Source: Nitrospinales bacterium (GTDB taxonomy: Bacteria; Nitrospinota_A; UBA7883; JACRGQ01). Taken from it: a DNA stretch of 64,000 bases. How positions within the stretch are numbered: position 1 is the first letter of the stretch; each line of letters opens with the position of its first letter. Positions 7,976 through 62,504 of this stretch are shown here, in pieces. The stretch lies in NCBI GenBank assembly GCA_023248535.1, contig JAHFEJ010000004.1, positions 3,012 to 67,011 of the forward strand, given 5' to 3'. Under the pieces are notes generated by a model. That model was given only the letters and a program-made list of their open reading frames with translations. It did not search any database and had not been told where the DNA came from. A program made the translations under genes and the position numbers.

Positions 7976-8602
7976 TTACACCCGCTCTTTGAGTAACGGC
8001 GATACACGATCCCAGATTTGACCGCTGACCGCGTCAATCCCCTGCCGGGCATCGATGCGTATTAAGCTCTCAAAGCCGGGGCCGTTGAATATGCGGTAGA
8101 CCTTTTTCAGAAACCCGATTTTCTCAAAGCCGATGTTCGCCCCGCCCCGGCCTTCAACGCGTTTAAGCCCCTCTTCCGGCTTGATGTCGAGGAAAAAGGC
8201 GATGTCCGGCTGTGGAAAATGCCGGTTCTTTTCAGCAATGACTTTAACGTCAAAACCCAGCGCCCCCTGATACGCCATATTGCTGGGGATGTAGCGGTCC
8301 ATCACCACAATTTTTCCCGTAATGAGGGCCGGGATGATGTTTTGCTTGCTGTCTTCTTCGCGGTCGTTGATGAACCAGGAAAGTTCCTCTTCGCGGGTAA
8401 CACCGTCACGCCCATGAGTGGCGATCCGGCGTATCTTCTGGCCCCACGGGCCGTTGGTCGGTTCCTTCAGGTAAAGGGCATCATGCCCCGCGCCACGAAG
8501 ACGGTCCACCAGTAATTGAGCCTGTGTGCTCTTCCCCGCTCCATCCAGCCCCTCGATGAGGACAAACAACCCCTTCTTCCGCTCTTCATTCCACACGCAC
8601 AT
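7976..8602 (-). CDS. tmk: Thymidylate kinase
   Basis: P-loop LIEGLDGAGKSTQ at N-terminus and overall dTMP kinase architecture in 208 aa. Confidence 0.9.
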   Translation of the reverse strand: MCVWNEERKKGLFVLIEGLDGAGKSTQAQLLVDRLRGAGHDALYLKEPTNGPWGQKIRRIATHGRDGVTREEELSWFINDREEDSKQNIIPALITGKIVVMDRYIPSNMAYQGALGFDVKVIAEKNRHFPQPDIAFFLDIKPEEGLKRVEGRGGANIGFEKIGFLKKVYRIFNGPGFESLIRIDARQGIDAVSGQIWDRVSPLLKERV

Positions 8603-9145
8603 GGAAGGATTCTATACCGCCTACGGCCGGTGCCAAATAGAATTCAGGCCTGTACCAAAATTGCCCTGTCCCGTCAAAAAAACCGCGTTACTGAGGGCCG
8701 AAGTCTTTCCAGGCCTTCGCGACAATAAAGACTATCGGGGCGCTATGCAGTAAAAGGTCAAAAATGTCTATTGGCTTGCGAAGCGTTCCGTTGGAAAGCA
8801 TCCGTATTTTTTCGACAAGATGCGGTTCCGGCGCCATCGGCCAGGGAGCAACCGCCAACCCGGCGGCGAGTATGATCAAAAGCGGCCAGCTGATATTATC
8901 GAGCATTGACTAATTCCATGAAATTGTTGAGTCAAAAGTGCAAAAAAGGGTTCAATGCTGCCCGTATAAGCACAGCATGATGGAAACACGTATTTATAAA
9001 ATAATAAACTTAATGGTTGATTTCAAAAAATAAAGTGGCATAATTACACGGTTTCTTGGCGCACCTGCGTGCGCCTCTAGCCGGGAACGACGGTTTGCAT
9101 TAGCCATAAGTTGACCGAAAATAACATGGTAAAGGGTTAACAGAT

Positions 9146-9538
9146 ATGAAAAAAGAGTACAAAGAGCTTCTAAACGCCCTGCTGAAACGCAGGGATGAAC
9201 TGGTCGCGCTGGAAGGGCACACCGGCCAAAAGGGCCTGGAAAACCTGGAGCTTGGCCATGGCGACGATATGGATATCGCCGAATCGGTCGTCGAGCAGGA
9301 AATGTCGATGACGATCCGCAACCGCGCATCGCGGGAAATCATCCTCATCGATGAATCTATTGAAAAGCTCCACCGGGGAGCATATGGCATCTGCGAAAGT
9401 TGCGACCAGGAGATTGAAACCAAACGGCTTAAAGCGCGGCCATTCGTAAAATATTGCATCGACTGCCAGACCGAAATGGAAAAAAATGCCGAGGAAAGCG
9501 CCCCCGGCGGCGGTTTCCAATTCGGAAAACTGGAATAA
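9146..9538 (+). CDS. DksA/TraR family C4-type zinc-finger protein
   Basis: 130 aa; N-terminal coiled-coil-like region followed by CESCDQEIETKRLKARPFVKYCIDCQ (Cx2C-x17-Cx2C) typical of DksA/TraR. Confidence 0.8.
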   Translation: MKKEYKELLNALLKRRDELVALEGHTGQKGLENLELGHGDDMDIAESVVEQEMSMTIRNRASREIILIDESIEKLHRGAYGICESCDQEIETKRLKARPFVKYCIDCQTEMEKNAEESAPGGGFQFGKLE

Positions 9539-10586: not shown

Positions 10587-13037
10587 TCAGCCAAGATAAC
10601 GGGTGACGCGGGGAATGAAATCTTCCGGCACGATCGGCTTGGCGATGAAGTCGTTCGCGCCCAATTCAAACACCTTGCGCCGGATATCGATCAGTTCGCC
10701 GCTGACCCCGGTGGAAGAGGAAATGGCGCTGTTAACGATCACGGGAAGCGTTTGAAGTAATGGATTGGCCCGAATCTCCCGGAGCAGCTCAAATCCATCC
10801 ATTTCAGGCATGCCAAGATCGGTGATCAACAACATGACCGAAGTGGTTTTCAGTATCTCCAGGGCCTCCACCCCATTAGAGGCTTCAATGACTTCCACAT
10901 CCTTTATTTCCAGGATGTGCTTTCTCATGATGGCGCGCTGCACCTCTTGATCGTCCGCCACCAGAACCACCGGCCGGATCGGCGGGAACCGCATGGAAAA
11001 AACGGCGCCCCGTCCCTCAACCGAGGCGACCGTTAAATCACCGCCATGGGCTTCCATGATTTCCTTGCAATAGGGAAGCCCCAGCCCCGTTCCCTTTTCA
11101 CCGCCGGTTCCCGTGGTGGTCGTTTTCACCTCCGGCCTGAAAATATCGGGCAGAAGCGATGCCGGTATGCCAACGCCGCCGTCCTTCACGGTGATGGTGT
11201 GGGGATCGGAGGCCCCCACGGTTATGCTGTCGCCTTCACGGCAGAATTTCACGGCGTTTGAAACAAGGTTATTCAATACTTCCAAGATCAGCGCGGTGTC
11301 GGCGAAAACCTTCATGCCGGAGGGGACTTCGTTGATGAGCCGAATCCCTTTTTTCTCGGCGGCCGGAGAGTAATGCCCGAACGAAGAGGCCGCAATATCG
11401 CGTACCGTCACGGGCTTTTTAATCACCAAAATCTTTCCCGACTGCAAACGGCTTAAATCGAGCAATTGATCGATCATCTCCAACAGGCCGCCAAGGTTTC
11501 CGCGCGCCCTCGACAACAAATTCGTCTCCGCCGCCGCGTTCACATTATAATGTTCCTTATTTTCCAGCATTCCCAGGAGCGCCATCACATTCCCCAGCGG
11601 TCCGCGCAGGTCATGCGAGACGAGCGAGATAAACTTGTTTTTGATTTTGGTGGCGTCCTCGGCATGTTCTTTTTCGATCCGCAGCGCGGTCGTCCTTTGC
11701 TCCACTTTTATTTCCAGTTGTTCCTTGGCCTCCAGCAGTATCTGGTGCACCCGCATTTCGTTTTCCAGCGCGCGCGCCTGCGCCTCCTCCTTTTCCCGCC
11801 GGATGGCCGCCGTCTTATCCTTTATGGCTTCCGAAATGGCTATCGACATGAGAATCGCCTCGGCGCAAACACCAACATCCATTGCGTGGCTGGTAATTGC
11901 CGAAAACGGCACCACACCCAGATGAACCAGGCCGTACACCACGATCCCCGCGATGCTGGATGCCCAGGCAAGAAGGAAGAACCGCGCGGCGCGCAAACCG
12001 TTTTTCAACGCCATAACGCCGGCCGCCAATAGCAGCGGCGGATACACCAACGCGGTACAAACAATGATCATGTGGAGTTGGGTATAATTGGGCCATGTCA
12101 GCGACAAAATGGTCATAATGCCACACGCCCAGAGATAGCCAACCATAAGACGGTCGGCGCGGGGAGCTGTTACCCGCGAGTTGAGAAAGACGCGCGCAAA
12201 AACAATCCCGCTTGACTCGACATACATCACGGCAAAGAGTATCGAATGTTTGGACCACCACAGCCAATCCGGCCAGAAATAGGCGTGGGCGAATCCATTG
12301 AAAACCAGGTTCTCAAAAATCCAGCTGGAAAGATAAATGACATAGACGATACTGCTTTTTTCCTTCAGGGAAATAAACATGAACAGGTTGTAGCAAAACA
12401 CGGCGAACAACACACCGAAATTCAGGCCATACAACAGCCATTCGTTCCTCTGCCGCCTGTGGAAATTATTTTCGTTCCATAAGGTAAAGGGTGTCATAAA
12501 CGTAGTTTCCGTCTTGACGCGCAGGTAAAGCGTTGTTTCACCCGGACCGGCACGGAACGGAAAGACCAAGCCCTGGCTGACAATCCCCGTTTCTTCTGGA
12601 ACCTCCATCAAGCCCGCCCTCCGCTCCGTAAACCCCCCTTCCGGCCGGGGAACATAAAGCAATACATGGTCGAGGTGGGTAAAATCCGTTCCGAGAATTG
12701 CTTCGAAGGGAGAAGCGGAGGGATTATCGACCGCCACCTTGAACCAGATGGCTGATGCGGTGAAACCAAAATAGAGGTTATCCATTCTGCTGGGTGCAAA
12801 ACGGGACTGAAACGCGGGCGATGAAACATCGGCGATGGTCAACGCCCCGCCGGGGTCTTCAAAAATATCGACGTGGCGCCCTAACCTATAAAGAGCGGTC
12901 TTGCCATCCAGCACAACCGGTGACGCTTCTGACGTTGTTGCCGCCAAAGACGGAAAAGACTGAAAAGAAAAAAAGAGTGCGGCGATCCCCATAATGAGAA
13001 AATAAGTCCCGCCCCTTTTCCGATTTGCCAACACCAC
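10587..13037 (-). CDS. Hybrid sensor histidine kinase with 7TMR-DISM periplasmic and 7TM domains, HisKA, HATPase_c and C-terminal receiver
   Basis: 816 aa: signal peptide, periplasmic domain, 7 TM helices, coiled coil, H-box (LVSHDLRGPL), HATPase (DGGVGIP...GTGLGL), receiver (VLVADDQ...DLGMPEMDG). Confidence 0.85.
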   Translation of the reverse strand: MVLANRKRGGTYFLIMGIAALFFSFQSFPSLAATTSEASPVVLDGKTALYRLGRHVDIFEDPGGALTIADVSSPAFQSRFAPSRMDNLYFGFTASAIWFKVAVDNPSASPFEAILGTDFTHLDHVLLYVPRPEGGFTERRAGLMEVPEETGIVSQGLVFPFRAGPGETTLYLRVKTETTFMTPFTLWNENNFHRRQRNEWLLYGLNFGVLFAVFCYNLFMFISLKEKSSIVYVIYLSSWIFENLVFNGFAHAYFWPDWLWWSKHSILFAVMYVESSGIVFARVFLNSRVTAPRADRLMVGYLWACGIMTILSLTWPNYTQLHMIIVCTALVYPPLLLAAGVMALKNGLRAARFFLLAWASSIAGIVVYGLVHLGVVPFSAITSHAMDVGVCAEAILMSIAISEAIKDKTAAIRREKEEAQARALENEMRVHQILLEAKEQLEIKVEQRTTALRIEKEHAEDATKIKNKFISLVSHDLRGPLGNVMALLGMLENKEHYNVNAAAETNLLSRARGNLGGLLEMIDQLLDLSRLQSGKILVIKKPVTVRDIAASSFGHYSPAAEKKGIRLINEVPSGMKVFADTALILEVLNNLVSNAVKFCREGDSITVGASDPHTITVKDGGVGIPASLLPDIFRPEVKTTTTGTGGEKGTGLGLPYCKEIMEAHGGDLTVASVEGRGAVFSMRFPPIRPVVLVADDQEVQRAIMRKHILEIKDVEVIEASNGVEALEILKTTSVMLLITDLGMPEMDGFELLREIRANPLLQTLPVIVNSAISSSTGVSGELIDIRRKVFELGANDFIAKPIVPEDFIPRVTRYLG

Positions 13038-13139
13038 TCCCCTTTAACCCCTTTACGCACACCGCCACGCCACAATTACCCGACAGACCTGTATAAATCA
13101 AAAATCCAATAACTATTGCGCCGCGGTTGCCAAATATCA

Positions 13140-13425
13140 TACCATTTTGACATTATTTTTGTTGAAGCAACAAGATGTAGTTATGACCCTCGGCACGGTA
13201 TACTTTTCCTTGATACAAAATACCCGAGCATTTTTATAAGATTTACATAGGTCATTAACATATTATTAATAGCCAACTGACGATCTAAAACTATAACTAT
13301 TTGTTTTTGTTATCTTATTACATGTGCACTTGCTAACATTAATAGTTGACAAATGCACTATGGTTTATATAAAATAGTTGAAGTTTGATAAACTGACCTT
13401 ATGTTGATATAAGTTAAATTTATGG
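13140..13425. promoter_or_regulatory. AT-rich (~30% GC) intergenic island upstream of the sulfur-assimilation cluster; probable promoter/regulatory region
   Basis: Roughly 290 bp of A/T-rich sequence in a ~62% GC genome, immediately upstream of the sulfite reductase gene; contains sigma70-like TTGACA-N16-TATAAA (about 13346-13373). Confidence 0.4.
13346..13373 (+). promoter_or_regulatory. Candidate sigma70-type promoter (TTGACA-16 bp-TATAAA)
   Basis: Consensus -35 hexamer and near-consensus -10 with 16-bp spacer, ~50 bp upstream of the ATG at 13426. Confidence 0.35.
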
Positions 13426-24396: not shown

Positions 24397-24405
24397 CCTC
24401 TCCAT

Positions 24406-24606
24406 GTCATGCCGGGCTTGACCCGGCACCCAGAAAAATTATCAATGCTTCCCTCAATCGGCCCCTTGGGCCGAGGTACATGCTGAGAGCATGTACCCGC
24501 CGGGCTTCCGGGTGAGTACACAATTCATTGTGTACGCTGGCGCGCCAGCGCCAAGAGAGGTCGGCCCGTACGGGCCGATGTACCCAATAAATTGTGTACC
24601 CACCCA
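24406..24606. mobile_element. MITE-like element, family A (left hairpin TIR + REP-palindrome core; right TIR missing)
   Basis: GTCATGCCGGGCTTGACCCGGCACCCAGAAAAATTATCAATGCTTCC matches the TIRs of the copies at 45822, 53352 and 62347; followed by palindromes GTACATGCTGAGAGCATGTAC, GTACACAATTCATTGTGTAC, TGGCGCGCCAGCGCCA, GGCCCGTACGGGCC, GTACCCAATAAATTGTGTACC. Confidence 0.5.
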
Positions 24607-24679
24607 GGAATGCGGAAGAAAAAGAAAAGGGGGTCTTTTTTCAAAGGCCCCCTTCGTGCGGTTTTAAAGAACCGGTTTG

Positions 24680-40221: not shown

Positions 40222-40650
40222 TTACCGATTTCCAATATCGATGGCTTTCTGCGCCATCGTTTTCACCGTGTTGATCACCGCCGCGTTCGCCTCGTAGGCG
40301 CGCGTGGCGGAAAGCATGTCCACCATCTCCTTCATTACATTCACGTTGGGCATGCTCACATACCCGTTCACGTCGGCATCGGGATGGCTGGGATCGTACA
40401 CCTTCTGAAACTCCCCCCGGTCTTCCTGAACGGCGACCACGGTCGGCTGCGAAACCGAATCCGCCAACGCCTTGCCGAATCCGCCTTCAAGGGGCGTGGC
40501 GGCCAACACTACTTCCTTGCGCCGGTAGGGGCCGCCTTCCGGCGTGCGGGTGGTATTCACGTTGGCTAGATTGCTGCTCACCACATTCATCCGGGTGCGC
40601 TGCGCGCTCAGGCCCGCCGCTCCAACTTTCATTGCCGACATTAAATCCAT
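40222..40650 (-). CDS. flgC: Flagellar basal-body rod protein FlgC
   Basis: 142 aa; N-terminal rod motif SAQRTRMNVVSSNLANVNTTRTPEGGPYRRKEVV and C-terminal AYEANAAVINTVKTMAQKAIDIG. Confidence 0.92.
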   Translation of the reverse strand: MDLMSAMKVGAAGLSAQRTRMNVVSSNLANVNTTRTPEGGPYRRKEVVLAATPLEGGFGKALADSVSQPTVVAVQEDRGEFQKVYDPSHPDADVNGYVSMPNVNVMKEMVDMLSATRAYEANAAVINTVKTMAQKAIDIGNR

Positions 40651-40666
40651 GGCGTCACTCCTTTAA

Positions 40667-41077
40667 TTATTGCGCCGAAAGCGATATCGCGCTTTTCAAA
40701 AGACCCAACTGTTTGTTCGTGATCGTGGCGTAGGTGGAGTAATTAATGTTCATCTCCGCCATCCGCGTTATTTCCCGTTCCAAATCCACCGTGTTGCCAT
40801 CCAGCCGCGCCGAAGAACCGCTCGCCGTCATCGACGGCGTTACTTTTAAGATGTCGGTTACCGGTAAATGCCCCGGATGCGTTCTCACCATTCCCCCTTT
40901 AGCCGGGGTTTTCAGCGCTTCGGCCATGGCCCCTTCAAAACTTACTTCTTGGGCCTTGTAGCCTGGAGTGGCGCTGTTGGCAATATTCGCCGCAGTCTGC
41001 GATGCTGAAGCGGATACGAAGTCGAGCGAACGGCTCGCCAGCTCCAATCCGTTTGTCGTCAAACCAAATATTTTCAT
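40667..41077 (-). CDS. flgB: Flagellar basal-body rod protein FlgB
   Basis: Starts MKIFGLTTNGLELASRSLDFVSASASQTAANIANSATPGYKAQEVSFE (ATG at 41077; longer ORF call rejected); C-terminal ITRMAEMNINYSTYATITNKQ. Confidence 0.88.
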   Translation of the reverse strand: MKIFGLTTNGLELASRSLDFVSASASQTAANIANSATPGYKAQEVSFEGAMAEALKTPAKGGMVRTHPGHLPVTDILKVTPSMTASGSSARLDGNTVDLEREITRMAEMNINYSTYATITNKQLGLLKSAISLSAQ

Positions 41078-41253
41078 GGCGTCAAAATTCCCTACACAAT
41101 ATTTTTGCCTAACCTCTATAGAGCAAACGCCATGCCGCAAACCGCAACTGCCGGTTTTTGCTCTATTTCCACACTTCCATCAATTCCATGTCCCCGAAAA
41201 CTAACTCCAACGTCAAAAAATGTAATCCTCAAACATCATTAAGTAGGGAAACA

Positions 41254-41268
41254 GCAAATGCCGAGCCA
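41254..41268 (-). promoter_or_regulatory. Candidate sigma54 (-24/-12) promoter for the flgB operon: TGGCTC-N5-TTGC
   Basis: Minus-strand TGGCTCGGCATTTGC with exact consensus spacing and the conserved GG/GC dinucleotides, ~175 nt upstream of the flgB ATG. Confidence 0.35.
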
Positions 41269-41511
41269 CGGAATATTGACGGGCAAGCACCTTTTCCTAG
41301 ATGACAACGACTCTCATAGGCTAGAGGTCAAGGATGAATCCCATAGGCAATGGGAAATTATGGAAAATGGCAAATTTTTTCCGATTTACGATTTTCATAT
41401 CGGCAAAAGGAGGCAAATTCTGCCGGACAAGGGATGGAATGGCTAGGAACTTTATGCACTGCGGGACAGTACGCAAGTAACATCTCTTTTATTATCAGAT
41501 ATTTATCTCCA

Positions 41512-43962: not shown

Positions 43963-45210
43963 ATGAGTTTAAACAGTGCAATGTATTCCGGGGTCAGCGG
44001 CATTATGACGCTGGGCAACGCCATGAACGTGACGGGCGACAACATCGCCAACGTCAACACGGTCGGCTACAAGGGGAGCCGCACGATGTTCTCGGACATC
44101 CTGTCCAATTCGCTTTCCAACGGCTCCACCACCATGCAGATGGGGCGCGGCACCTTTTTGAGCGGCGTCACCCCCTCGTGGTCGCAGGGGTCCTTTGAAA
44201 GCACCGCCAACGCCACCGACATGGCGCTGCAAGGCTCCGGCTTTTTCATGGTGAAAGACCCCGTCAACAACGCCAAGTTCTACACCCGTTCCGGCCAGTT
44301 CACCCTTAACAACCAGGGGCAACTGGTCAACGGCAACGGGATGAACGTGCAGGGGTATCAGGTAACCAGCACCGTGAACGGCGCGGTGAACACCAACGGC
44401 CAGATCAGCAACATCAACATCGGCGGCGTGCAGTCGGTGCCCAAGGCCACCACGCAGTTCCGCATCGGCGCGAACCTCAACGCCGCGGCCAGCGCCAACG
44501 CCACGTTCGCCACCAGCTTCGACGTGTACAACAACCTCGGCGGCCGCGTGACGCTGACCTACAGCTTCACGAAAAGCCCCCTGGCCCCGCTGACGTGGAA
44601 CTACACGGTCGCAGCCTCTTCCGGCACGATAACCACCGGCGGCGCGGGCGCCATGACCTTCAACTCCTCCGGCCAGATGGTGACACCGGCGGCAAACCCC
44701 GCGCTTTCCATCACCGGCTTCCCCACCGGCGCCGCGCCCCTGACGATGAACTGGACGCTCTTCAACCCGGTTGGCGGCGCGCTTTACGGCGACATCACCA
44801 GCTACAACGCCGGATCGACCACGACCTCGATCATCCAGGACGGCTACTCGACCGGCACGCTGAAGGGCCTCTCGGTCGACGGCAAGGGGGTCATCAGCGG
44901 CCTCTTCTCCAACGGCCAAACGCAGGCGCTCTACCAGTTGGCGATAGCCGACTTCGCCAGCCCCTGGGGCCTCAGCCGCCAGGGGGGCAGCATGTACGCC
45001 GAAACCATGCAGTCGGGCCAGCCGTTGCTGGGCACCGCCGGATCGGGCGGACTGGGCACCGTGCTCGGCAGTTCGCTGGAGCTTTCCAACGTCGACCTCG
45101 CCAGCGAGTTCGTGAAAATGATCCAGAACCAGCGCGGCTACCAGGCGAACTCGCGCATCATCACCACGGTGGACGAGATGATGACCGAAGCGGTGAACCT
45201 GAAACGGTAA
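43963..45210 (+). CDS. flgE: Flagellar hook protein FlgE
   Basis: 415 aa; N-terminal rod/hook heptad region (MSLNSAMYSGVSGIMTLGNAMNVTGDNIANVNTVGYKG) and C-terminal LSNVDLASEFVKMIQNQRGYQANSRIITTVDEMM. Confidence 0.92.
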   Translation: MSLNSAMYSGVSGIMTLGNAMNVTGDNIANVNTVGYKGSRTMFSDILSNSLSNGSTTMQMGRGTFLSGVTPSWSQGSFESTANATDMALQGSGFFMVKDPVNNAKFYTRSGQFTLNNQGQLVNGNGMNVQGYQVTSTVNGAVNTNGQISNINIGGVQSVPKATTQFRIGANLNAAASANATFATSFDVYNNLGGRVTLTYSFTKSPLAPLTWNYTVAASSGTITTGGAGAMTFNSSGQMVTPAANPALSITGFPTGAAPLTMNWTLFNPVGGALYGDITSYNAGSTTTSIIQDGYSTGTLKGLSVDGKGVISGLFSNGQTQALYQLAIADFASPWGLSRQGGSMYAETMQSGQPLLGTAGSGGLGTVLGSSLELSNVDLASEFVKMIQNQRGYQANSRIITTVDEMMTEAVNLKR

Positions 45211-45226
45211 ATAAGATAACGTAAAT

Positions 45227-45248
45227 CCCGCCGGTGTTCCGGCGGGAA
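45227..45248 (+). terminator. Terminator-like hairpin after flgE (no clear U-tract)
   Basis: CCCGCCGG-TGTT-CCGGCGGG 8-bp GC stem 17 nt after the flgE stop; lacks a T-run, so it may be rho-assisted or only an RNA end structure. Confidence 0.25.
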
Positions 45249-45562
45249 CGTTGAAGGATAACGATGTACATAAGGAGTGTTAGCACGGTCAAGCATTTTT
45301 CGCCTCCTTGTTTCGACCGGCGCCTTTAAACACTGCGTCCTGTTCAACCCCCGCCGGGATTAACCCCCCGGCGGGGGCAAAAAATGAGCGGATGAAATTT
45401 AGAAGCAAGCGTTTTTGAAATTGGAAGTTAAGAAGGGAACCGCCGTTTTCGCCTCCTTGTTTATACGGCGCGCGTCCTTTTAACTGCGTCAAAATGCCCG
45501 GCCGGCAGCCTACCGGCCGGGCGCCCAAATCCCCCCTCTTCCCCTTCCCCCTGTCAGAAGTG

Positions 45563-45657
45563 AACCACAGAGCAACAGAGACACGGAGAGGACTGTTTGG
45601 GGTAATAAACAACGAAAAAAAGATTTTTCTGCCCTGTGCCTCTGCGTCTCTGTGGTT
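45563..45657. repeat. Long imperfect hairpin repeat, family B, copy 1
   Basis: AACCACAGAGCAACAGAGACACGGAGAGG ...~40-nt A/T-rich loop... CCTCTGCGTCTCTGTGGTT; related copy at 60744-60846. Confidence 0.5.
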
Positions 45658-45670
45658 ATCTCCATATTCC

Positions 45671-45821
45671 CCGGTGGGTGCAGGTTCTCAACATATACAT
45701 CGGCCCGGCGGGCTTGGAGAGTTGCCGCTGGCGCGGCAATGTCACACAGGAATGTGAGACCTGCTTCCCATGGTGGGACACGCATTCTTGCGTGTCATCG
45801 GCCCGGCGGGCCGATTGCGAT
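45671..45821. repeat. REP-like palindrome cluster
   Basis: Successive GC-rich palindromes GGCCCGGCGGGC, GCCGCTGGCGCGGCAA, GACACGCATTCTTGCGTGTC, GGCCCGGCGGGCC sharing motifs with the RAYT-flanking REPs. Confidence 0.5.
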
Positions 45822-45994
45822 GTCATCCCGCACTTGATGCGGGATCCAGAAACATTATCAAAGCTTCCCCCATCGGCCCGCCGGGCCGACGTTCCCTTGG
45901 CGCGGTGCGCCAATGTACCCAATAAATTATGTACCTACCGGGAGGGGGAAAGTTTGGACAATATTTCTGGGTGCCGGGTCAAGCCCGGCATGAC
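45822..45994. mobile_element. MITE-like element, family A, complete copy (two ~45-bp hairpin TIRs flanking a REP-palindrome core)
   Basis: Left TIR GTCATCCCGCACTTGATGCGGGATCCAGAAACATTATCAAAGCTTCC; right TIR (reverse complement) GTCATGCCGGGCTTGACCCGGCACCCAGAAATATTGTCCAAACTTTCC; core GGCCCGCCGGGCC / TTGGCGCGGTGCGCCAA / GTACCCAATAAATTATGTACC. Confidence 0.6.
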
Positions 45995-46042
45995 AGAGAA
46001 GGAATTGGCGCCGCATTGCCAACTGCCTCGATACCCGTTATA

Positions 46043-46339
46043 ATGGGAGCCGTGATAAAGTCGTTTGCCGGCAAAATGACCCGGAAGCTTTTCGAGGAAG
46101 GAAAGGCCGAAGGTCATTTACGGGCAATCGAGGCGGCGGCGAAAAGAAAGCTCGCCATGCTTCACTTTGCGCGGCGGCTTGCCGACTTGCGCGTGCCGCC
46201 GGGAAACAGGCTGGAAGCCCTTAAAGGCGGCAGAAAAGGACAATTCAGCATCAGGATAAACGACCAATATCGAATCTGCTTTCGTTTTGATGAAGGAGAA
46301 GGCAATGCTTACGATGTTGAAATCACCGATTATCATTAA
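46043..46339 (+). CDS. higB: HigB-like toxin (plasmid-maintenance killer protein, RelE/ParE superfamily)
   Basis: 98 aa MGAVIKSFAGKMTRKLFEEGKAEG...NRLEALKGGRKGQFSIRINDQYRICFRFDEGEGNAYDVEITDYH matches the HigB/killer family (FKxxxxxKxF ... RLEALKG...QFSIRINDQYRICFRF...DVEI.DYH). Confidence 0.85.
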   Translation: MGAVIKSFAGKMTRKLFEEGKAEGHLRAIEAAAKRKLAMLHFARRLADLRVPPGNRLEALKGGRKGQFSIRINDQYRICFRFDEGEGNAYDVEITDYH

Positions 46340-46351
46340 GGAAATGAAGCC

Positions 46352-46651
46352 ATGAGCGGTATTGGATACGCCATTGAACATCCGGGGGCGGTGCTGTGGG
46401 AGGAGTACCTTCAGCCGATGGGGATAACCCAAAGCCGCTTCGCGCGGGAGATCGCCATCAGCTTTACGCGAGCCAACGAACTGATAAACGGGAAACGGGG
46501 CTTTACGCCCGATACCGCCCTGCGGGTGGCGAAATATCTGGGCACGTCGCCGGAATTCTGGATGAACTGGCAAGCGGCCTACGATCTCCAGCGCGCCCGC
46601 AAAGAGCACGCCGGCGACTATCGCAAAATAAAAACCGTCACCGCCGCGTAA
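46352..46651 (+). CDS. higA: HigA-family antitoxin (XRE-type HTH)
   Basis: 99 aa; IEHPGAVLWEEYLQPMGITQSRFAREIAISFTRANELINGKRGFTPDTALRVAKYLGTSPEFWMNWQAAYDL is the canonical HigA/VapI HTH antidote pattern; 12 nt after higB. Confidence 0.85.
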   Translation: MSGIGYAIEHPGAVLWEEYLQPMGITQSRFAREIAISFTRANELINGKRGFTPDTALRVAKYLGTSPEFWMNWQAAYDLQRARKEHAGDYRKIKTVTAA

Positions 46652-46770
46652 CCCTCCATCGGCCCGCCGGGCCGATTGTCTTGGTAGGTGCGACATTCCT
46701 GTCGCACATTGGCGCAACGCGCCAACCGTGTCGGCCCAATGGGCCGATGTACCCAATGAATTGGGTACCC
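46652..46770. repeat. REP-like palindrome cluster abutting the higA stop
   Basis: GGCCCGCCGGGCC, GTGCGACATTCCTGTCGCAC, TTGGCGCAACGCGCCAA, GGCCCAATGGGCC, GTACCCAATGAATTGGGTAC: the same palindrome types as in the RAYT-flanking arrays. Confidence 0.55.
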
Positions 46771-46780
46771 ACCGGGAAAG

Positions 46781-46810
46781 GCAGGGGCAGGTTTGAAACC
46801 TGCCCGTACA
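46781..46810. repeat. Palindrome GGGCAGGTTTGAAACCTGCCC (copy 1; second copy at 47939-47967)
   Basis: Near-identical 25-29-bp hairpin plus flank (…CCCGTACA(A)GCATCCG) present twice, bracketing the low-GC cassette. Confidence 0.45.
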
Positions 46811-46837
46811 GCATCCGGTCCACCAAGAACAAGAAAG

Positions 46838-46864
46838 GGCCGGCCTGGCGGGCCGCTTTTCTTC
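46838..46864 (+). terminator. Possible rho-independent terminator (GGGCCGGCC-loop-GGCCGC + TTTTCTT)
   Basis: GC-rich stem followed by a T-rich run ~190 nt downstream of higA; weak assignment. Confidence 0.3.
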
Positions 46865-47185
46865 GTGGCACGATCCGGCTTTGCCCGAGAGAACGCGGAT
46901 CGCATATTCAGGGTTATACCCGCAATTGACCTGAAATTCCGACAGTATCCCCGCCCCTTCTTCTTCCCCTCTGCCTGCCGGCACCGCTCCCGGATCGCCA
47001 CAAAGTATTCTTTCCGCTATACTTTCCCCATTTTCCGCGTTCCTTTTGGTTACATTTAATATGAGGCAATTCGTAGTATAAATAAACCAGCTATTTGACA
47101 TCTCAAAAAGTAGCATTCCGAGGTACAATCAACATAATCTAAAGAGTCTCTGCTCTTCCTTTGATTTCATCGGAGGTGTCTGATC

Positions 47186-47455
47186 TTGAACAAATTCAAC
47201 GTTAAGAAGACAGCGAAAGATGACCTACTGAACATTCCCAACGTACATTCTCATCCGGGAATTCAATTTCCCCTCCTTGTAGAGCCTGTAGCGAACTCGA
47301 TTACATGCTTATTTGAAAGCCAGCACCACTATAACAACGGGGTGAACGTACTGCATGACAACACCAGCCGGGCAGGTGTTGAAGGCGCCGCTATCCAATT
47401 GCTCACGCTGACATCTTTTCCTTCCGAAGTGGTGGCGTATGAGCCTAAACAATAA
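47186..47455 (+). CDS. Hypothetical small protein in the low-GC cassette
   Basis: TTG start 9 nt after GGAGG; ORF lies entirely in ~45% GC DNA; no recognised domain. Confidence 0.3.
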   Translation: MNKFNVKKTAKDDLLNIPNVHSHPGIQFPLLVEPVANSITCLFESQHHYNNGVNVLHDNTSRAGVEGAAIQLLTLTSFPSEVVAYEPKQ

Positions 47456-47903
47456 GCGCCTTGCGGCGCTCATCGGGTGTCTTTTTATAGCCTACGGCGC
47501 AATAACGGGATGTGGCCGTAAATTGAAGCCAAATGAAGGCGGCACCGCGTCTTCCGGCGGGGGTGGCTTGCCAAGCGCATATGATTCATCAACGCCATCG
47601 GGCACCTCGAATGGCGCGTCATCTTCAAGTAACAATGCCCAGCGGCATGGCTGTCAATACCCATCAAGCGGCAATCCAACATCGTGCGTTGAAAAGGATA
47701 ATATCGTCAGCCAGGCAAATTGCAATAATTATGAGACGTTCGCTGATTCTTGCCCTTTGACCGGCCTTGTCGCCACATGCTCCATTAAAGATACATATGG
47801 CTCTGTCATCAAAATAAATTATGAATATACCGGCACCCTGCAAGACGCTCAACTATACACAACGATTGGAACAGGCGAGACACTTTCTTGCATAGGCCCT
47901 TGA
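47439..47903 (+). CDS. Hypothetical Cys-rich lipoprotein in the low-GC cassette
   Basis: Lipoprotein signal MSLNNKRLAALIGCLFIAYGAITGC (lipobox ITGC); Ser/Gly-rich linker; 8 further cysteines; low GC. Confidence 0.5.
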   Translation: MSLNNKRLAALIGCLFIAYGAITGCGRKLKPNEGGTASSGGGGLPSAYDSSTPSGTSNGASSSSNNAQRHGCQYPSSGNPTSCVEKDNIVSQANCNNYETFADSCPLTGLVATCSIKDTYGSVIKINYEYTGTLQDAQLYTTIGTGETLSCIGP

Positions 47904-47938
47904 CGGCAAGACGCAACGCACCTGAGCCGCCTTTTGAG

Positions 47939-47967
47939 GTACGGGCAGGTTTGAAACCTGCCCGTAC
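47939..47967. repeat. Palindrome GTACGGGCAGGTTTGAAACCTGCCCGTAC (copy 2)
   Basis: 12-bp perfect stem with TTGAA loop 36 nt after the lipoprotein stop; same element as at 46781-46810. Confidence 0.5.
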
Positions 47968-48006
47968 AAGCATCCGCCCCGCCGGGAGAAAGGAAAAAGA
48001 CAAGAG

Positions 48007-48050
48007 AGCTTTGAAAATATTTCTGGATCCCGGGTCAAGCCCGGGATGAC
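48007..48050. mobile_element. Solo right-end TIR of MITE family A, 7 nt downstream of the rel stop
   Basis: AGCTTTGAAAATATTTCTGGATCCCGGGTCAAGCCCGGGATGAC: its reverse complement GTCATCCCGGGCTTGACCCGGGATCCAGAAATATTTTCAAAGCT matches the family A TIR consensus. Confidence 0.5.
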
Positions 48051-48057
48051 AAAAAGA

Positions 48058-50235
48058 TCAGCGTTTTTCGGCGCGGCGGGCATCCATGATACGTTCGACG
48101 CTGCGGATGCCATCGAGGCCGCGCACCGTTTCCAATATCCGTTGCAGGTGATTGAGGTCTTCTATCTCGACCGTGAGATCCAGATCCCCCTCTATCGCGC
48201 TGGTGGCGGTGACGGTGGCGGATGCGATATTCGCTTCGCACCCGGCGATGGCGGCGGAGACCCGCGCCAAAATGCCGGGACGGTTGAGGCTCTTAATGAG
48301 GATGCGCACCGGGCGGAGCTGCTTTTTCGCGGCGGTCTCCCACCGGGCTTCGAGCAGCCGTTCGGGGTCGGCCTCCAGGGATTTAAGGGAGGGGCAACTT
48401 TTGGCGTGGATCACCAAGCCGTGCCCGGCCGAGATGTACCCCAAGATCGGGTCGCCCGGCACGGGGTTGCAGCAGCCGGCGAAGCGGATCAGCATGTCGT
48501 GGATATCGCCCACGCGCACCCCCAGGTTTTCGGTCACGCTGGCGATGTAGTTCTTGCGGCGGTTTTCGACCTCGCGCCATTTTTCGGCCGGGAGCAGCTT
48601 GTGCAGCACCGTGTAGGCCGATAGCGACGAGATGCCGATACGGTCGAGCATCACCTCGGCGTTTTTGAAACCGAGGGCCACGGCGGCGGCCTCCATCGTT
48701 TCTTTCGTCCAAAACGCCTTCAGGTCCAGCCCGTGGCGGCGCAGCTCGTTCTCCACGATCTCGTTCCCCAGCCGCAGCGATTCCACCTTCTGCGCGTTGC
48801 GCAGATACCCCTTTATCTTGGCGCGGCCGTGGGAGGTGACGGCGATCTTGAGCCAATCGCGCACCGGGTGCTGCTCGTTCGAGGTGAGCACCTCCACCAC
48901 GTCGCCGTTGCGCAGCTGGTAGTCGGGCGGCACCGGCTTGCCGTTCACCAGCGCGCCGAGGAAGTGGTTCCCCAACTGGGTGTGGATGCCGTAGGCGAAA
49001 TCGAGCGGGGTGGCCCCGGCGGGGAGCGCTTTCACCTCCTGCTTCGGGGTGAAGACGTAGACCTCGTTCGGAAAGAGGTCCATCTTGAGCGTGTCGATGA
49101 ACTCCTCGGAATTGTCGACGCTGAGGCCCAGGTCCAGCAGCCGCTTCACCCAGATGAAATTCTCGTCGTCCTTGGTGGGGGGGCGCTTCCCCTCTTTATA
49201 GCGGAAGTGCGCCGCCACGCCGTCTTCGCTGTTGCGGTGCATCTGGCTGGAGCGTATCTGGAATTCCACCCGCCGCCCGGTGTGCGTGAGCACGGTGGTG
49301 TGTATGCTCTGGTACATGTTCTCTTTCGGCAGCGCGATATAGTCCTTGAACTTGCCGGGGATCGGCTTCCACTTCGTGTGGACAAGCCCCAGCACCTTGT
49401 AGCAGTCGAGCAGGCTGTTGGTGATGATCCGCACGCCGATGAGATCGTATATCTGGTCGAAATCGAGGTTCTGTTCGGTCATCTTGCGGTAGATGCCGTA
49501 AAAATGCTTGAAGCGCCACGACACCTGCCCCATGATCTTTTCCATCAGCATCAGGTCGCGCGTTTGGGCGCAGAGGCTGGTGATGAATTTATCCAGCTCC
49601 TCCTGCCGCTCTTTCATCAGCCCCTCGATCCGCTTGTACTCGAACGGCATGAGGTACTTGAAGGCTATGTTCTCCAGCTCCACCTTGATCCAGTGCAGGC
49701 CCAGGCGGTTGGCCAGCGGGGCGTAGATATCCATCGTCTCCTGCGAGATGAATTTCTGTTTCTGCGGGGGGAGGAAATCGAGCGTCCGCATGTTATGGAG
49801 GCGGTCGGCCAGCTTGATGAGCACGACGCGGAGGTCGTTGCTCATGGCCAGGATCATCTTGCGGACGTTTTCGGCCTGCGATTCCTCTTTGCTGGCGAAG
49901 GTGAGGCGGCTGAGCTTGGTAAGCCCCTCCACCAGCAGCAGCACCTCCCCGCCGAAGATCGAGCGTATCTGGGCGGGATCGGCTTCGGTATCCTCCAGCG
50001 TGTCGTGCATCAGGGCGGCGGCGATGGCGGCGGGATCCATCTTCATTTTGGTGAGGATGAACGCCACCTGCATCGGGTGGCTCATATACGGCTCGCCGGA
50101 AAGGCGCACCTGCCCCTTGTGCGCCGCCGAGGCGAACGCGTAGGCCCCCAGTATCTTGTCCACCTCGGCGTCCGGCTGATATTCGCGGACGGCTTCGATG
50201 ATCTCCTCCAGGTGTATCGCCCGCAGCGCCTGCAT
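48058..50235 (-). CDS. rel: Bifunctional (p)ppGpp synthetase/hydrolase, RelA/SpoT family
   Basis: 725 aa; HD hydrolase domain (HPMQVAFILTKMKMDPAAIAAALMHDTLEDT), RelA/SpoT synthetase domain, TGS and C-terminal ACT. Confidence 0.95.
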   Translation of the reverse strand: MQALRAIHLEEIIEAVREYQPDAEVDKILGAYAFASAAHKGQVRLSGEPYMSHPMQVAFILTKMKMDPAAIAAALMHDTLEDTEADPAQIRSIFGGEVLLLVEGLTKLSRLTFASKEESQAENVRKMILAMSNDLRVVLIKLADRLHNMRTLDFLPPQKQKFISQETMDIYAPLANRLGLHWIKVELENIAFKYLMPFEYKRIEGLMKERQEELDKFITSLCAQTRDLMLMEKIMGQVSWRFKHFYGIYRKMTEQNLDFDQIYDLIGVRIITNSLLDCYKVLGLVHTKWKPIPGKFKDYIALPKENMYQSIHTTVLTHTGRRVEFQIRSSQMHRNSEDGVAAHFRYKEGKRPPTKDDENFIWVKRLLDLGLSVDNSEEFIDTLKMDLFPNEVYVFTPKQEVKALPAGATPLDFAYGIHTQLGNHFLGALVNGKPVPPDYQLRNGDVVEVLTSNEQHPVRDWLKIAVTSHGRAKIKGYLRNAQKVESLRLGNEIVENELRRHGLDLKAFWTKETMEAAAVALGFKNAEVMLDRIGISSLSAYTVLHKLLPAEKWREVENRRKNYIASVTENLGVRVGDIHDMLIRFAGCCNPVPGDPILGYISAGHGLVIHAKSCPSLKSLEADPERLLEARWETAAKKQLRPVRILIKSLNRPGILARVSAAIAGCEANIASATVTATSAIEGDLDLTVEIEDLNHLQRILETVRGLDGIRSVERIMDARRAEKR

Positions 50236-53338: not shown

Positions 53339-53351
53339 CCGCGCCTTTCAT

Positions 53352-53498
53352 GTCATGCCGGTCTTGAACCGGCACCCAGAAATACTTTCAAAACTTCTTG
53401 GCGCTACGCGCCAATGTACATGCTCTCAGCATGTACCCACCCCGGGGAAAAGAAAGTTTTGAAAATATGTCTGGATCCCGCATCAAGTGCGGGATGAC
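53352..53498. mobile_element. MITE-like element, family A, complete copy filling the gap between the convergent secA and topoisomerase B-subunit stops
   Basis: Left TIR GTCATGCCGGTCTTGAACCGGCACCCAGAAATACTTTCAAAACTTC; core TTGGCGCTACGCGCCAA + GTACATGCTCTCAGCATGTAC; right TIR ...AAAGTTTTGAAAATATGTCTGGATCCCGCATCAAGTGCGGGATGAC. Confidence 0.65.
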
Positions 53499-53502
53499 AG
53501 CT

Positions 53503-57753: not shown

Positions 57754-57991
57754 TTGGTGGGTACCCAATTCTTTATTGGTGGGTACCCAATTCATTGGGT
57801 ACATCATGCCACAAGGCAGGACTTTCCCCTTGGCGCTGGCGCGCCAACGTACACATTAAAATGTGTACCTACCCGGAAAAGCCCCTCTCTTGGTCTCGGT
57901 GGGACGGACACTCCTGTCCGTCATCGGCTCGCAGGGCCGACTCTCTATTGGCGCTGGCGCGCCAACGTACACATTAAAATGTGTACCCACC
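57754..57991. repeat. REP array (left flank of RAYT): two repeat units of GGTGGGTACCCAATTC(T)ATTGGGTAC / GGCCGACTCT / TTGGCGCTGGCGCGCCAA / GTACACATTAAAATGTGTACC
   Basis: Ends 4 nt before the RAYT stop; contains the same four palindrome types (P1-P4) as the right-flank array, plus GACGGACACTCCTGTCCGTC. Confidence 0.6.
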
Positions 57992-57995
57992 GGCA

Positions 57996-58487
57996 TCAAG
58001 GCAACATATTTTCATTTACAATCAGCCACGGGTAATCTTGCGGCCTTTCCGCAAGACCGGCACGAACCGCATTCCCCCGTATATACTCATATTTATCCAG
58101 CCATTCATCTTCATTCCGCACTATCCTGTCGTAGGACTCCTTCTGCCAGCAAGAACCGGTACGCTTGAGCAATCTGTTGACCGGGTGCGATGTTTTGCCT
58201 TTTATGGTTTTTAGAATGCCGGTCAGCGAATAAAATAACCCTGCCGCTTTCTCCAGCGGTCTTATCAAAAGATGTATGTGATCGGGCATAATAACGCCTA
58301 TTGAAACATCGTACTTGCTCCGCGCACCTTCAAGTACCGCCAATCGAACAATGTCACGCCCCGCCTCCGGCAACAAAAATCCTTTTGTGCGGAAGGTGAC
58401 AAAGTACCACATGCCCCCTTGCTGCCAATGAGGGAGCTTCCGGTGGGTGATCGTTACATCGGTTGCGGTAATGTTCCGCTTCGGCAT
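57996..58487 (-). mobile_element. REP-associated tyrosine transposase (RAYT, IS200/IS605 Y1 HUH transposase family)
   Basis: MPKRNITATDVTITHRKLPHWQQGGMWYFVTFRTKGF...IMPDHIHLLIRP (HxH/HUH motif) ...YEYIRGNAV (catalytic Tyr region); flanked on both sides by REP arrays; the ORF call extends with a TTG start into the REP, so the ATG at 58487 is preferred. Confidence 0.8.
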
Positions 58488-58512
58488 AAGCCGATGATAA
58501 CATTTCTTCCCT

Positions 58513-58950
58513 GCTCGGTGGGTATCCAATTTTTTATTAGGTGGGTACCCAATTCATTGGGTATATCGGCCCAACGGGCCGACTCTCTCTTGGCGCGTTG
58601 CGCCAATGTACACAATAAATTGTGTACCTACCCGGATGCTCGGTGGGTACCCATTTTAATGGGTACTTCGGCCCAACGGGCCGACTCTCTCTTGGCGCGT
58701 TGCGCCAATGTACACAATAAATTGTGTACCTACCCGGATGCTCGGTGGGTACCTATTTTAATGGGTACTTCGGCCCAACGGGCCGACTCTCTCTTGGCGC
58801 TTTGCGCCAATGTACACAATAAATTGTGTACCTACCCGGATGCTCGGTGGGTACCCATTTTAATGGGTACATTGGCGCAAAGCGCCAAGAAGGTGTCATA
58901 CCTGACGGCATGATGTACACAATAAATTGTGTACCTACCGGGGAAGCGGG
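58513..58950. repeat. Tandem REP array (right flank of RAYT): four ~102-bp units, each a string of four palindromes
   Basis: Unit GCTCGGTGGGTACCCATTTTAATGGGTACTTCGGCCCAACGGGCCGACTCTCTCTTGGCGCGTTGCGCCAATGTACACAATAAATTGTGTACCTACCCGGAT repeats at ~58513 (with a 23-bp insertion), 58638, 58740 and 58842 (last copy degenerate). Confidence 0.7.
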
Positions 58951-58985
58951 AATAAAAAAAGGGGCTTGGGTTGAACCCAAGCCCC
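58951..58985 (-). terminator. Rho-independent terminator of the porin gene
   Basis: Minus strand: GGGGCTTGGGTT-loop-AACCCAAGCCCC followed by TTTTTTTATT, 25 nt after the porin stop. Confidence 0.7.
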
Positions 58986-60743: not shown

Positions 60744-60846
60744 AACCACAGAGCCACAAAGACACAGAGAAATCTGTTTAGTAAAGGCACAATAAAATAT
60801 GGCAAGAGGCTTGTTTTGCAACTCTGTGTCTCTGAGCCTCTGTGGT
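60744..60846. repeat. Long imperfect hairpin repeat, family B, copy 2
   Basis: AACCACAGAGCCACAAAGACACAGAGA ...loop... CTCTGTGTCTCTGAGCCTCTGTGGT; arms ~85% identical to copy 1 at 45563-45657. Confidence 0.5.
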
Positions 60847-60883
60847 CATATCCATACACAGAAATGCCGCAAGGCATGACCCC

Positions 60884-62346: not shown

Positions 62347-62490
62347 TGTCATCCCGGCCTTGAGCCGGGATCCAGAAATATTTTCAAAGCTTTCTCCATC
62401 GGCCCGGTGGGCCGACACTCTTCAGCGGCAGGCGTGCCAATTTAAGAAAGCTTTGATAATGTGTCTGGATTCCCGCCTACGCGGGAATGA
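62347..62490. mobile_element. MITE-like element, family A, complete copy between the convergent folC and NHL-protein stops
   Basis: Left TIR GTCATCCCGGCCTTGAGCCGGGATCCAGAAATATTTTCAAAGCTTTC; right TIR GAAAGCTTTGATAATGTGTCTGGATTCCCGCCTACGCGGGAATGAC; short core with GGCCCGGTGGGCC. Confidence 0.65.
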
Positions 62491-62504
62491 CAGGGATGGG
62501 GAGA

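Follow-up and report, generated by a model that had tools for sequence, protein, structure and literature searches.

A probable turnover zone for repeats and small gene modules in the convergent flgE–rel spacer of a Nitrospinales genome

Between two converging core genes of a Nitrospinales bacterium, flgE (flagellar hook protein, forward strand) and the bifunctional rel/spoT (reverse strand), is a 2,847-bp spacer (45211–48057) that carries repetitive extragenic palindromic (REP) elements, longer hairpin elements, a toxin–antitoxin (TA) pair and a small low-GC segment. The whole stretch analysed, 64,000 nt of contig JAHFEJ010000004.1, is referred to here as the window, and all positions are given in its numbering. 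The genes carried in the spacer are different in each of the relatives open to examination, and its repeat families are dispersed through the window in numbers far above chance. We therefore regard this convergent spacer as, probably, a low-cost dumping and turnover zone for repeats and small modules. All of its components are of known kinds, namely REP systems with their transposase gene, terminal-repeat elements, a HigBA/GraTA-type TA module and a variable accessory spacer, and no new kind of system is revealed; the locus is an ordinary, well-layered case of accessory DNA accumulation. The features of the spacer and its two flanks are as follows.

43963–45210, forward: flgE, flagellar hook protein, left core flank (Pfam Flg_bb_rod, LlgE_F_G_D1, FlgE_D2 and Flg_bbr_C; homologues named FlgE, in Nitrospinae/Nitrospinota)
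45211–45549, forward: conserved non-coding spacer, with a GC hairpin (45226–45247) and two tandem units of ~150 nt (about 45290–45385 and 45440–45525)
45563–45657, no strand assigned: family B long hairpin, 22-nt inverted arms at 45563–45584 and 45636–45657, AACCACAGAGCNACAGAGACAC
45671–45820, no strand assigned: REP cluster 1, GTGG-tagged and untagged short palindromes, including CGGCCCGGCGGGCCG
45821–45995, no strand assigned: complete family A element, 175 nt, with 45-nt termini that each contain an 8-bp covarying hairpin and an interior with three REP-type palindromes
46016–46044, forward: predicted sigma-70-type higBA promoter, TTGCCA-17-TATAAT, 11/12 matches
46043–46339, forward: higB toxin gene, GraT/HigB type (PF05015, E 4.8e-18; PDB 6f8s_B over the full length, E 3.7e-21)
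46352–46651, forward: higA antitoxin gene, HTH_3 (TIGR02607, E 9.8e-28; PDB 6f8s_A and 3trb)
46652–46777, no strand assigned: REP cluster 2, in the order P1, GTAG-tagged GTGCGACATTCCTGTCGCAC, P2, P1, CCAC-tagged GTACCCAATGAATTGGGTAC
46779–46826, forward: pal29 copy 1, hairpin at 46781–46809 followed by a common 3′ extension of ~17 nt
46841–46855, no strand assigned: P1-like hairpin between A and T runs, terminator-like on both strands
47186–47455, forward: ORF89 (open reading frame beginning with TTG), a gene probably in decay (34% identical, apart from a deletion of 24 residues, to an 87-aa ORF upstream of the ORF154 homologue in locus L087)
47439–47903, forward: ORF154, small lipoprotein-like product of a rare family, with an L-x-G-C lipobox, a Ser/Gly linker and a 6-Cys C-terminal domain
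47937–47985, forward: pal29 copy 2, hairpin at 47939–47967 (DNA fold z = −6.7) followed by the common 3′ extension
48007–48051, reverse: single terminal unit of family A, separated from the rel stop by 6 nt
48058–50235, reverse: rel/spoT, bifunctional RelA/SpoT homologue, right core flank (Pfam HD_4, RelA_SpoT, TGS and ACT_4; 96% identical to L001)

The sub-elements that a preliminary description of this stretch had listed all sit where it placed them, to within 1–2 nt. Its further statement that the spacer has no housekeeping function fails for 45211–45549, which is conserved in relatives and lies outside the variable zone. The nearest named relatives of both FlgE and Rel are from Nitrospinae/Nitrospinota metagenome-assembled genomes (MAGs; 73–74% identity), and the closest genome is the unclassified MAG WY2.bin26 (L001; Rel 96% identical).

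Collinear with the window at 90–93% DNA identity from 56182 to 48053, L001 diverges 5 nt past the rel stop; beyond this point are REP-like palindromes and a MazE-like and PIN gene pair, followed by the contig end, with no family A unit. The relative L083 (FlgE 88% identical) keeps the first 340 bp of the spacer and then carries, in order, an AAA_14/DUF4143 gene, GTAG-tagged palindromes, a fusion of promoter and higB tail, higA, REPs and typA/bipA. Its AAA_14/DUF4143 gene (L083 4024–5166, reverse strand; PADLOC candidate defence system PDC-S01, E 3.2e-59) occupies the slot that is taken in the window by the family B hairpin, the REPs and family A, and after its higA–REP block is neither pal29 nor the low-GC cassette. 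In a relative with 92% FlgE identity, a Y1_Tnp gene resembling that of a REP-associated tyrosine transposase (RAYT) lies 513 bp after flgE; L088 (77% FlgE identity) has only about 700 bp before typA, a gene absent from the window; and in a relative at 74% the neighbours of flgE are unrelated, being a YHS/TetR/MMPL set. Because the right neighbour changes in this way (rel, typA or YHS/TetR/MMPL), the flgE–rel adjacency is lineage-specific and the spacer is also a rearrangement breakpoint. The arrangement seen in the window was found in no relative. Repeated insertion at a single chromosomal site, as first proposed, is thus partly supported by the dispersed repeats and the differing cargo, but has to be narrowed, since the first 340 bp are conserved and the flgE–rel adjacency is not fixed.

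Chromosomal integration hotspots are variable regions between conserved flanking genes, a concept from comparative genomics. The spacer resembles them in that differing cargo (TA pairs, a defence-candidate ATPase or a transposase, depending on the close relative) lies beside one and the same flank. It differs in that one flank at a time is conserved, the right neighbour being rel or typA, in the absence of an integrase or tRNA gene, and in the tiny size of the cargo modules (0.3–1.2 kb). At the locus there is no tRNA or tmRNA gene and no integrase or recombinase ORF, and the sole candidate attachment repeats are the ~48-nt direct repeats containing pal29. A scan of 44.5–48.8 kb against Rfam gave one sub-threshold microRNA match only, which we judged to be noise.

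Elsewhere in the window are further copies of the repeat families and the gene to which the REPs can be linked; the copy counts of all repeat families given here refer to this one 64-kb window of the genome.

24405–24610, no strand assigned: solo terminus of family A accompanied by REP palindromes, located in a convergent spacer 9 nt past a stop codon
53351–53499, no strand assigned: second complete family A element, filling the convergent secA–gyrB spacer
57776–58960, reverse: REPtron, in which a RAYT gene lies between REP doublets (57776–57993) and a tandem array of three 102-nt REPIN-like units (58530–58960)
57996–58487, reverse: RAYT gene (NF047646 REP_Tyr_transpos, E 1.5e-22, 80 bits, equalling the NCBIfam equivalog cut-off)
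62347–62492, no strand assigned: third complete family A element, in a convergent spacer, the right terminus with the variant stem TTCCCGC/GCGGGAA

Against expectations from dinucleotide shuffles, the palindrome CGGCCCN3GGGCCG occurs 10 times in the 64 kb (0.05 expected), TTGGCGCN3GCGCCAA 7 times (0.01 expected) and GTACMCAWTNNAWTGKGTAC 17 times (0.00 expected). The preliminary description had made its hotspot reading dependent on the sub-elements recurring elsewhere in the genome, and recur they do, dispersed and far in excess of chance within the window. Two of the palindrome types are tagged (P3, GGTGG/GGTAG-GTAC..., and P4, GGTAG-GTGCGAC...), and such a GTAG or GTGG head is what defines the GTAG REP superfamily (PMC3733652). 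Beginning directly after the higA stop, REP cluster 2 contains a REPIN-like doublet (46683–46775) with its tags pointing outward. The label 'REP' is accordingly correct in its strict sense, given the GTAG/GTGG tags, the inverted doublets and a RAYT gene with flanking REP arrays.

Located 10 kb from the spacer, the RAYT gene carries on both sides palindromes of the same types as those between flgE and rel. Its product matches the Escherichia coli TnpA-REP (PDB 4er8, E 1.7e-5) and contains an HUH-like motif, PDHIHLL; the Pfam Y1_Tnp score falls slightly below its cut-off (21.5 versus 23). Look-ups of the exact sequences of HigB and of P0125, which is 100% identical to the RAYT, returned no record. 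In the adjoining array, the 102-nt composite unit consists of P3 forward, P1, P2 and P3 reverse and is repeated three times at 58540–58886. This region is low in GC, and no other 1-kb stretch of the window deviates as much in tetranucleotide composition. The REPs of the spacer are presumably mobilised by this RAYT.

The arrangement agrees with REP/REPIN–RAYT systems of E. coli, Pseudomonas and Stenotrophomonas (PMC3116915, PMC3337134, PMC3733652, PMC3479197) in its short GTAG/GTGG-tagged palindromes, in its inverted doublets, tandem arrays and single RAYT gene amid its REPs, and in the positions of the repeats downstream of genes and in convergent spacers. It differs in that tagged P3 and P4 are mixed with untagged P1 and P2 in fixed 102-nt composites, and in its host: Nitrospinota is absent from the phyla listed for GTAG repeats in PMC3733652, and relative to that survey the phylum is new for REPtrons. 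Two contigs of the ENA assembly ERZ27297709 also carry such genes. On one, a RAYT 76% identical to that of the window stands beside a Mur-ligase gene and looks syntenic with the window REPtron; on the other is the RAYT-like gene 513 bp after the 92% identical flgE. If both contigs come from one genome, the latter would be a second REPtron, in the flgE spacer.

Family A is a non-coding, multi-copy element of about 150–175 nt whose 45-nt terminal inverted repeats (TIRs) show 87% complementarity. An initial structural regular expression missed known copies, and the family was therefore searched with an nhmmer profile, which located eight terminal units in the window, forming three complete copies and two solo units. 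In the terminal hairpin, 96.6% of the aligned cells are paired and compensatory changes occur in 4 of the 8 pairs; this pairing is matched by 0 of 500 shuffles, and it collapses in slid controls. All four convergent spacers of the window are occupied by family A, 4–32 nt from stop codons, and it occurs nowhere else there, a single apparent exception having been removed on closer check. The same positioning has been published for REPs as conv-REP placement (PMC3733652).

Although it was earlier called a miniature inverted-repeat transposable element (MITE), we would not use that name for family A in its strict sense. Its TIRs, small size, lack of coding sequence and copy number are shared with MITEs, TIR repeat families and TIRtrons (PMC3733652), but it departs from DDE-type MITEs in other respects. 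By inspection, no consistent target-site duplication of 2 nt or more is present at the three complete copies (flanks GA|GA, AGC|TGA on the reverse strand and TT|GG), and neither the 64-kb window nor the retrieved loci yielded an autonomous element bearing such ends. Each terminus has its own covarying hairpin, and REP palindromes lie in the interior. Family A is thus closer to a REPIN-like doublet than to a DDE-type MITE. No empty site was found for it either: the secA–gyrB spacer, which holds a complete copy in the window (53339–53502), is filled in L001 by a different 66-nt sequence (2693–2758) that starts with TGTCATTCC, a variant terminus. At 90–93% DNA identity, such a replacement means that these spacers turn over even among very close genomes. 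In the distant deltaproteobacterial MAG UBA5754 are family A-like terminal units, CGTCATGCCGGACTTGATCCGGCATCCAGAA (L024 818–853, 8133–8168 and 12706–12741), so that this hairpin class, too, is cross-lineage. The family B hairpin (DNA fold z = −3.8) has a second copy at 60744–60847, and REP clusters adjoin both copies.

Next to the family A element is the higBA pair, which had been described as having a REP cluster directly at its stop, as indeed it has. It is predicted to be an intact GraTA-type module, in which the toxin gene precedes the antitoxin gene (the reversed gene order) across a 12-nt gap. Translation of higB may start at a GTG (46052) instead of the ATG at 46043, because the ATG overlaps the −10 box. 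With GraTA of Pseudomonas putida (PDB 6F8S) and HigBA of Proteus vulgaris (4MCT, 4MCX) it shares the toxin-first order and a RelE-fold HigB with an HTH-XRE HigA of similar sizes, with full-length similarity to both chains of 6F8S; it is set apart by being a chromosomal module of Nitrospinota and by a close relative in which the toxin gene is cleanly deleted and the promoter and antitoxin are kept. HigA is 99% identical in amino acids to that of L083, and at third codon positions the identity between window and L083 is 83% for higA and 78% for flgE. Since the two genes have diverged similarly at these positions, the TA module is old and vertically inherited in the clade, not recently acquired. 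In L083 (5495–5885), higB has been cleanly deleted, with the promoter core fused to the last ~24 nt of higB and HigA kept. What varies in the TA module is therefore its decay, and the pair offers a natural snapshot of this process, the toxin lost and the antitoxin and promoter retained.

Bracketing the low-GC segment are the two copies of pal29, a simple 29-nt hairpin of 11-7-11 structure; they have the same orientation and are 1129 nt apart, one following the higBA/REP block and the other ORF154. The 21-nt core of pal29 is identical in at least 120 metagenome contigs among the matches listed, from hosts of 37–66% GC. Its consensus is GTAG-GGGCAGGTTTGAAACCTGCCC-CTAC, and conservation ends exactly there in 92 oriented sites, with random flanks. 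The copies of the window represent a GTAC...GTAC variant in which a compensatory swap preserves the stem, and pal29 as present here is a local modification within a class of GTAG-tagged hairpins that crosses phyla. The common extension of ~17 nt would fit either a local duplication or a longer, genome-specific repeat unit; longer units of this kind occur in L097. RAYT-like genes are the commonest recurrent neighbour (4 of 80 metagenome loci, in two of which no more than ~22 nt separate hairpin and gene); in L144 a RAYT-like ORF contains the hairpin, which is translated as VGAGLKPAPT. In other genomes, pairs of pal29 in the same orientation flank ordinary genes, one of which reads like ruvB, at host-typical GC. 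The palindromes said to bracket the cassette are thus present in two copies at the positions reported, but they are not specific to it. Recurrent pal29-bounded cassettes were rejected as an interpretation, since the pairs elsewhere enclose ordinary genes at normal GC. An integron attC site or cassette array was rejected as well (no integrase; a simple hairpin, dispersed in many phyla, in place of an R″–L″/L′–R′ structure), as was a Xer/dif module, which shares the 11-7-11 architecture: a chromosome has a single dif site, but pal29 is dispersed in many copies. The exact conservation of the core across very different genomes deserves follow-up.

Of the two ORFs between the pal29 copies, ORF154 is, judged by its homologues, a real and rare lipoprotein gene. 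An exhaustive search of 1.84 billion representatives yielded three relatives only, of which P0122 (48% identity, E 4.4e-32) and P0123 (43% identity, E 2.5e-20) match over the full length and have the lipobox, Ser/Gly linker and 6-Cys C-terminal domain of ORF154, and the third, P0124, is repetitive and probably spurious. ORF154 has no match in Pfam, NCBIfam or PADLOC, and an AlphaFold2 model with the two homologues was unusable (mean pLDDT, the predicted local distance difference test score, of 36). For ORF89, no homologue was found among 5.8 billion proteins; neither ORF gave anything meaningful in PADLOC, PHROGs or NCBIfam, and neither had been predicted by the gene caller of the source contig. 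A related module in L087 comprises a divergent helix-turn-helix (HTH) regulator, the 87-aa ORF and an ORF154 homologue; it follows a high-GC rumA-like gene and lacks pal29. ORF89 looks like a decayed copy of the L087-type partner ORF, and no remnant of the HTH regulator was detected by tblastn in 46.6–48.1 kb. With ORF154 intact, ORF89 decayed and the regulator absent, the segment is best described as a decaying remnant of a three-gene accessory module, so that the 'two-gene cassette' of the preliminary description retains one well-founded gene, ORF154, beside an ORF89 that has no database homologue and looks decayed. A GYD domain, considered for the 87-aa ORF of L087 and for ORF89, was discarded, as no Pfam match appeared even at E ≤ 1. 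No second copy of the cassette was found.

In composition, the cassette is less exceptional than had been supposed. The mean GC of the window is 57.8% (s.d. 3.8%, 1-kb windows), and the segment between the pal29 copies (46811–47938) has 49.6%, falling to 47.9% at its lowest (z about −2.6); the contrast of ~45% with ~62% given earlier is too large. Within the spacer only 46.8–47.9 kb deviates, higBA having 55% GC. In sliding-window GC and tetranucleotide profiles the cassette deviates to a degree comparable with five other patches of the window: it ranks ninth in tetranucleotide deviation within the window and is one of about six low-GC patches. Other such patches, at 8100–9400, 12000–13300 and 40400–41300, deviate at least as much as the cassette, with a low of 44.7% at ~12.6 kb. 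A foreign origin of the cassette is possible, on the grounds of its moderate compositional deviation and patchy distribution. Of the horizontally acquired cargo that the spacer was first thought to hold, higA, being vertical in the clade, has to be removed, which leaves the cassette as a candidate on these two grounds.

If the spacer is, as we think probable, a turnover zone, insertions at its 3′–3′ junction would break no promoter and would thus be tolerated and persist. Such junctions would be colonised by the RAYT-linked REP families and by family A units, the REPs being spread by a single-strand DNA tyrosine (HUH) transposase, presumably the genome's own RAYT. Small accessory modules, such as TA pairs, a defence-candidate ATPase or the lipoprotein module, would come and go. 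The hairpin repeats plausibly supply targets or substrates for recombination, from which fast turnover and a rearrangement breakpoint could result; REPs are described as known targets of insertion sequences in PMC1525189. The spacer is composed of layers: the conserved 340 bp, REPs, family A, higBA (vertical since at least the split from the 88% relative), the low-GC remnant and pal29. Several points weigh against this interpretation. P1 and P2 lack the GTAG tag. The GC of the cassette is only moderately unusual, five other patches of the window being as low or lower. Neither a true empty site nor polymorphism within the population could be recovered; the contigs from the same population break at repeats. 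The relatives are known from separate MAGs or from short contigs, which come from different samples, and the order of events is reconstructed from four or five snapshots. The placement of the hairpins by stop codons could, moreover, result from selection for function, in termination or mRNA stability, and not from neutral accumulation.

That last point can be extended to a possible, though less probable, explanation of the locus, in which family A, the REPs and pal29 are kept as bidirectional terminators or stabilisers of mRNA 3′ ends and together form a regulated landscape of 3′ untranslated regions (UTRs). The presence of family A in all four convergent spacers at 4–32 nt from stops, its covarying hairpin, the conserved element after flgE and the proposal that REPs are transcribed and act as RNA elements (PMC3733652) are in its favour. 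The positions are not conserved, however, L001 having another 66-nt filler between secA and gyrB and no family A after rel; a canonical T-run is found in none of the hairpins; covariation is expected equally if a transposase recognises the hairpin as single-stranded DNA; and the differing gene cargo would be left unexplained. Such a function and the turnover of the spacer are not exclusive. Very unlikely, by comparison, is a chimera created during metagenome assembly, with unrelated segments linked through common repeats. Two Logan contigs from the same population (SRR14366785) are identical to the window and end exactly at repeats, one at 45804 and the other being 46749–47967, so that the joins of the spacer are not independently spanned by them, and the join from cassette to rel occurs only in a k141 contig and in the window. 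That contig, ENA ERZ27280116 k141_3033711 (L081), is essentially the window itself, with one mismatch in 17,198 bases (99.994%). Exact repeat matches of 25–31 nt are nevertheless far under the k = 141 implied by the name of the source contig, agreement with L081 is near complete over these 17 kb, flgE, the conserved spacer, higA and the REP types stand together on a single, independent contig in L083, and by lying against the rel stop the family A terminus conforms to what is seen at the three other convergent spacers.

Two further explanations concern the cassette. It is unlikely to be a discrete element integrated site-specifically at pal29, with the ~48-nt repeats at 46779–46826 and 47937–47985 as attL and attR, even though the copies share their orientation and ~17 nt beyond the hairpin that are absent from the metagenome consensus, bracket the only compositionally deviant segment of the spacer, and are missing together with the cassette after the higA–REP block of L083. 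No integrase, recombinase or tRNA is present at the locus, the homologous module of L087 is not bounded by pal29, and pal29 pairs elsewhere flank ordinary genes at host-typical GC; as longer genome-specific units occur (L097), the common extension may be just this genome's version of the repeat unit. Still less do we expect the segment to be a non-autonomous IS200/IS605-like unit with cargo, moved in trans by a Y1 transposase of the RAYT type. The hairpins do lie on the same strand, like IS200/IS605 ends, pal29 has a GTAG-type tag, no neighbour recurs beside it as often as RAYT-like genes (4 of 80 loci) and the window encodes a RAYT; that RAYT is, however, flanked by P3-type REPs and not by pal29, the L087 homologue has no hairpins, pairs elsewhere enclose core genes (one ruvB-like) at normal GC, and the cassette was not found a second time. 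Were it true, GTAG-tagged REP hairpins would mobilise genes and not just themselves.

Outside the zone in which turnover is probable is the stretch directly after flgE, whose first 340 bp are conserved down to relatives with 74–77% FlgE identity and which is, given this conservation, not accessory. Each of its units contains, in order, TTTTCGCCTCCTTGTTT, TTTAAACACTGCGTC (degenerate TTTTAACTGCGTC in unit 2) and a GC-rich hairpin; the element reads TTCGCCTCCTTGT, ~10 nt, CGCCTTTAAACACTGCGTCCTG and the GC hairpin, with its core at 45297–45345 and the second unit at 45446–45525, and is tandemly duplicated both in the window and in L083. The spacer after flgE is ~80% identical to L083 over 335 nt, and over 48 nt the core shares 87.5% identity with L088, compared with 72% for flgE DNA; a degenerate version is present in L084. 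The element has no Rfam match and no conserved ORF, and within the window its motif is confined to this site. When six units were folded with RNAalifold, the energy was −1.9 kcal/mol and covariation was not convincing, the hairpins being too different to align. It could be a 3′-UTR element, a small RNA or a protein-binding site, and its conservation deserves follow-up.

For the poorly studied Nitrospinota, the locus provides a clean worked example of how convergent spacers gather repeats, TA modules and small genes and become breakpoints of synteny. It is also of practical relevance to the annotation of MAGs, as the hairpins cause contig breaks and spurious ORFs, for example those encoding VGAGLKPAPT peptides.

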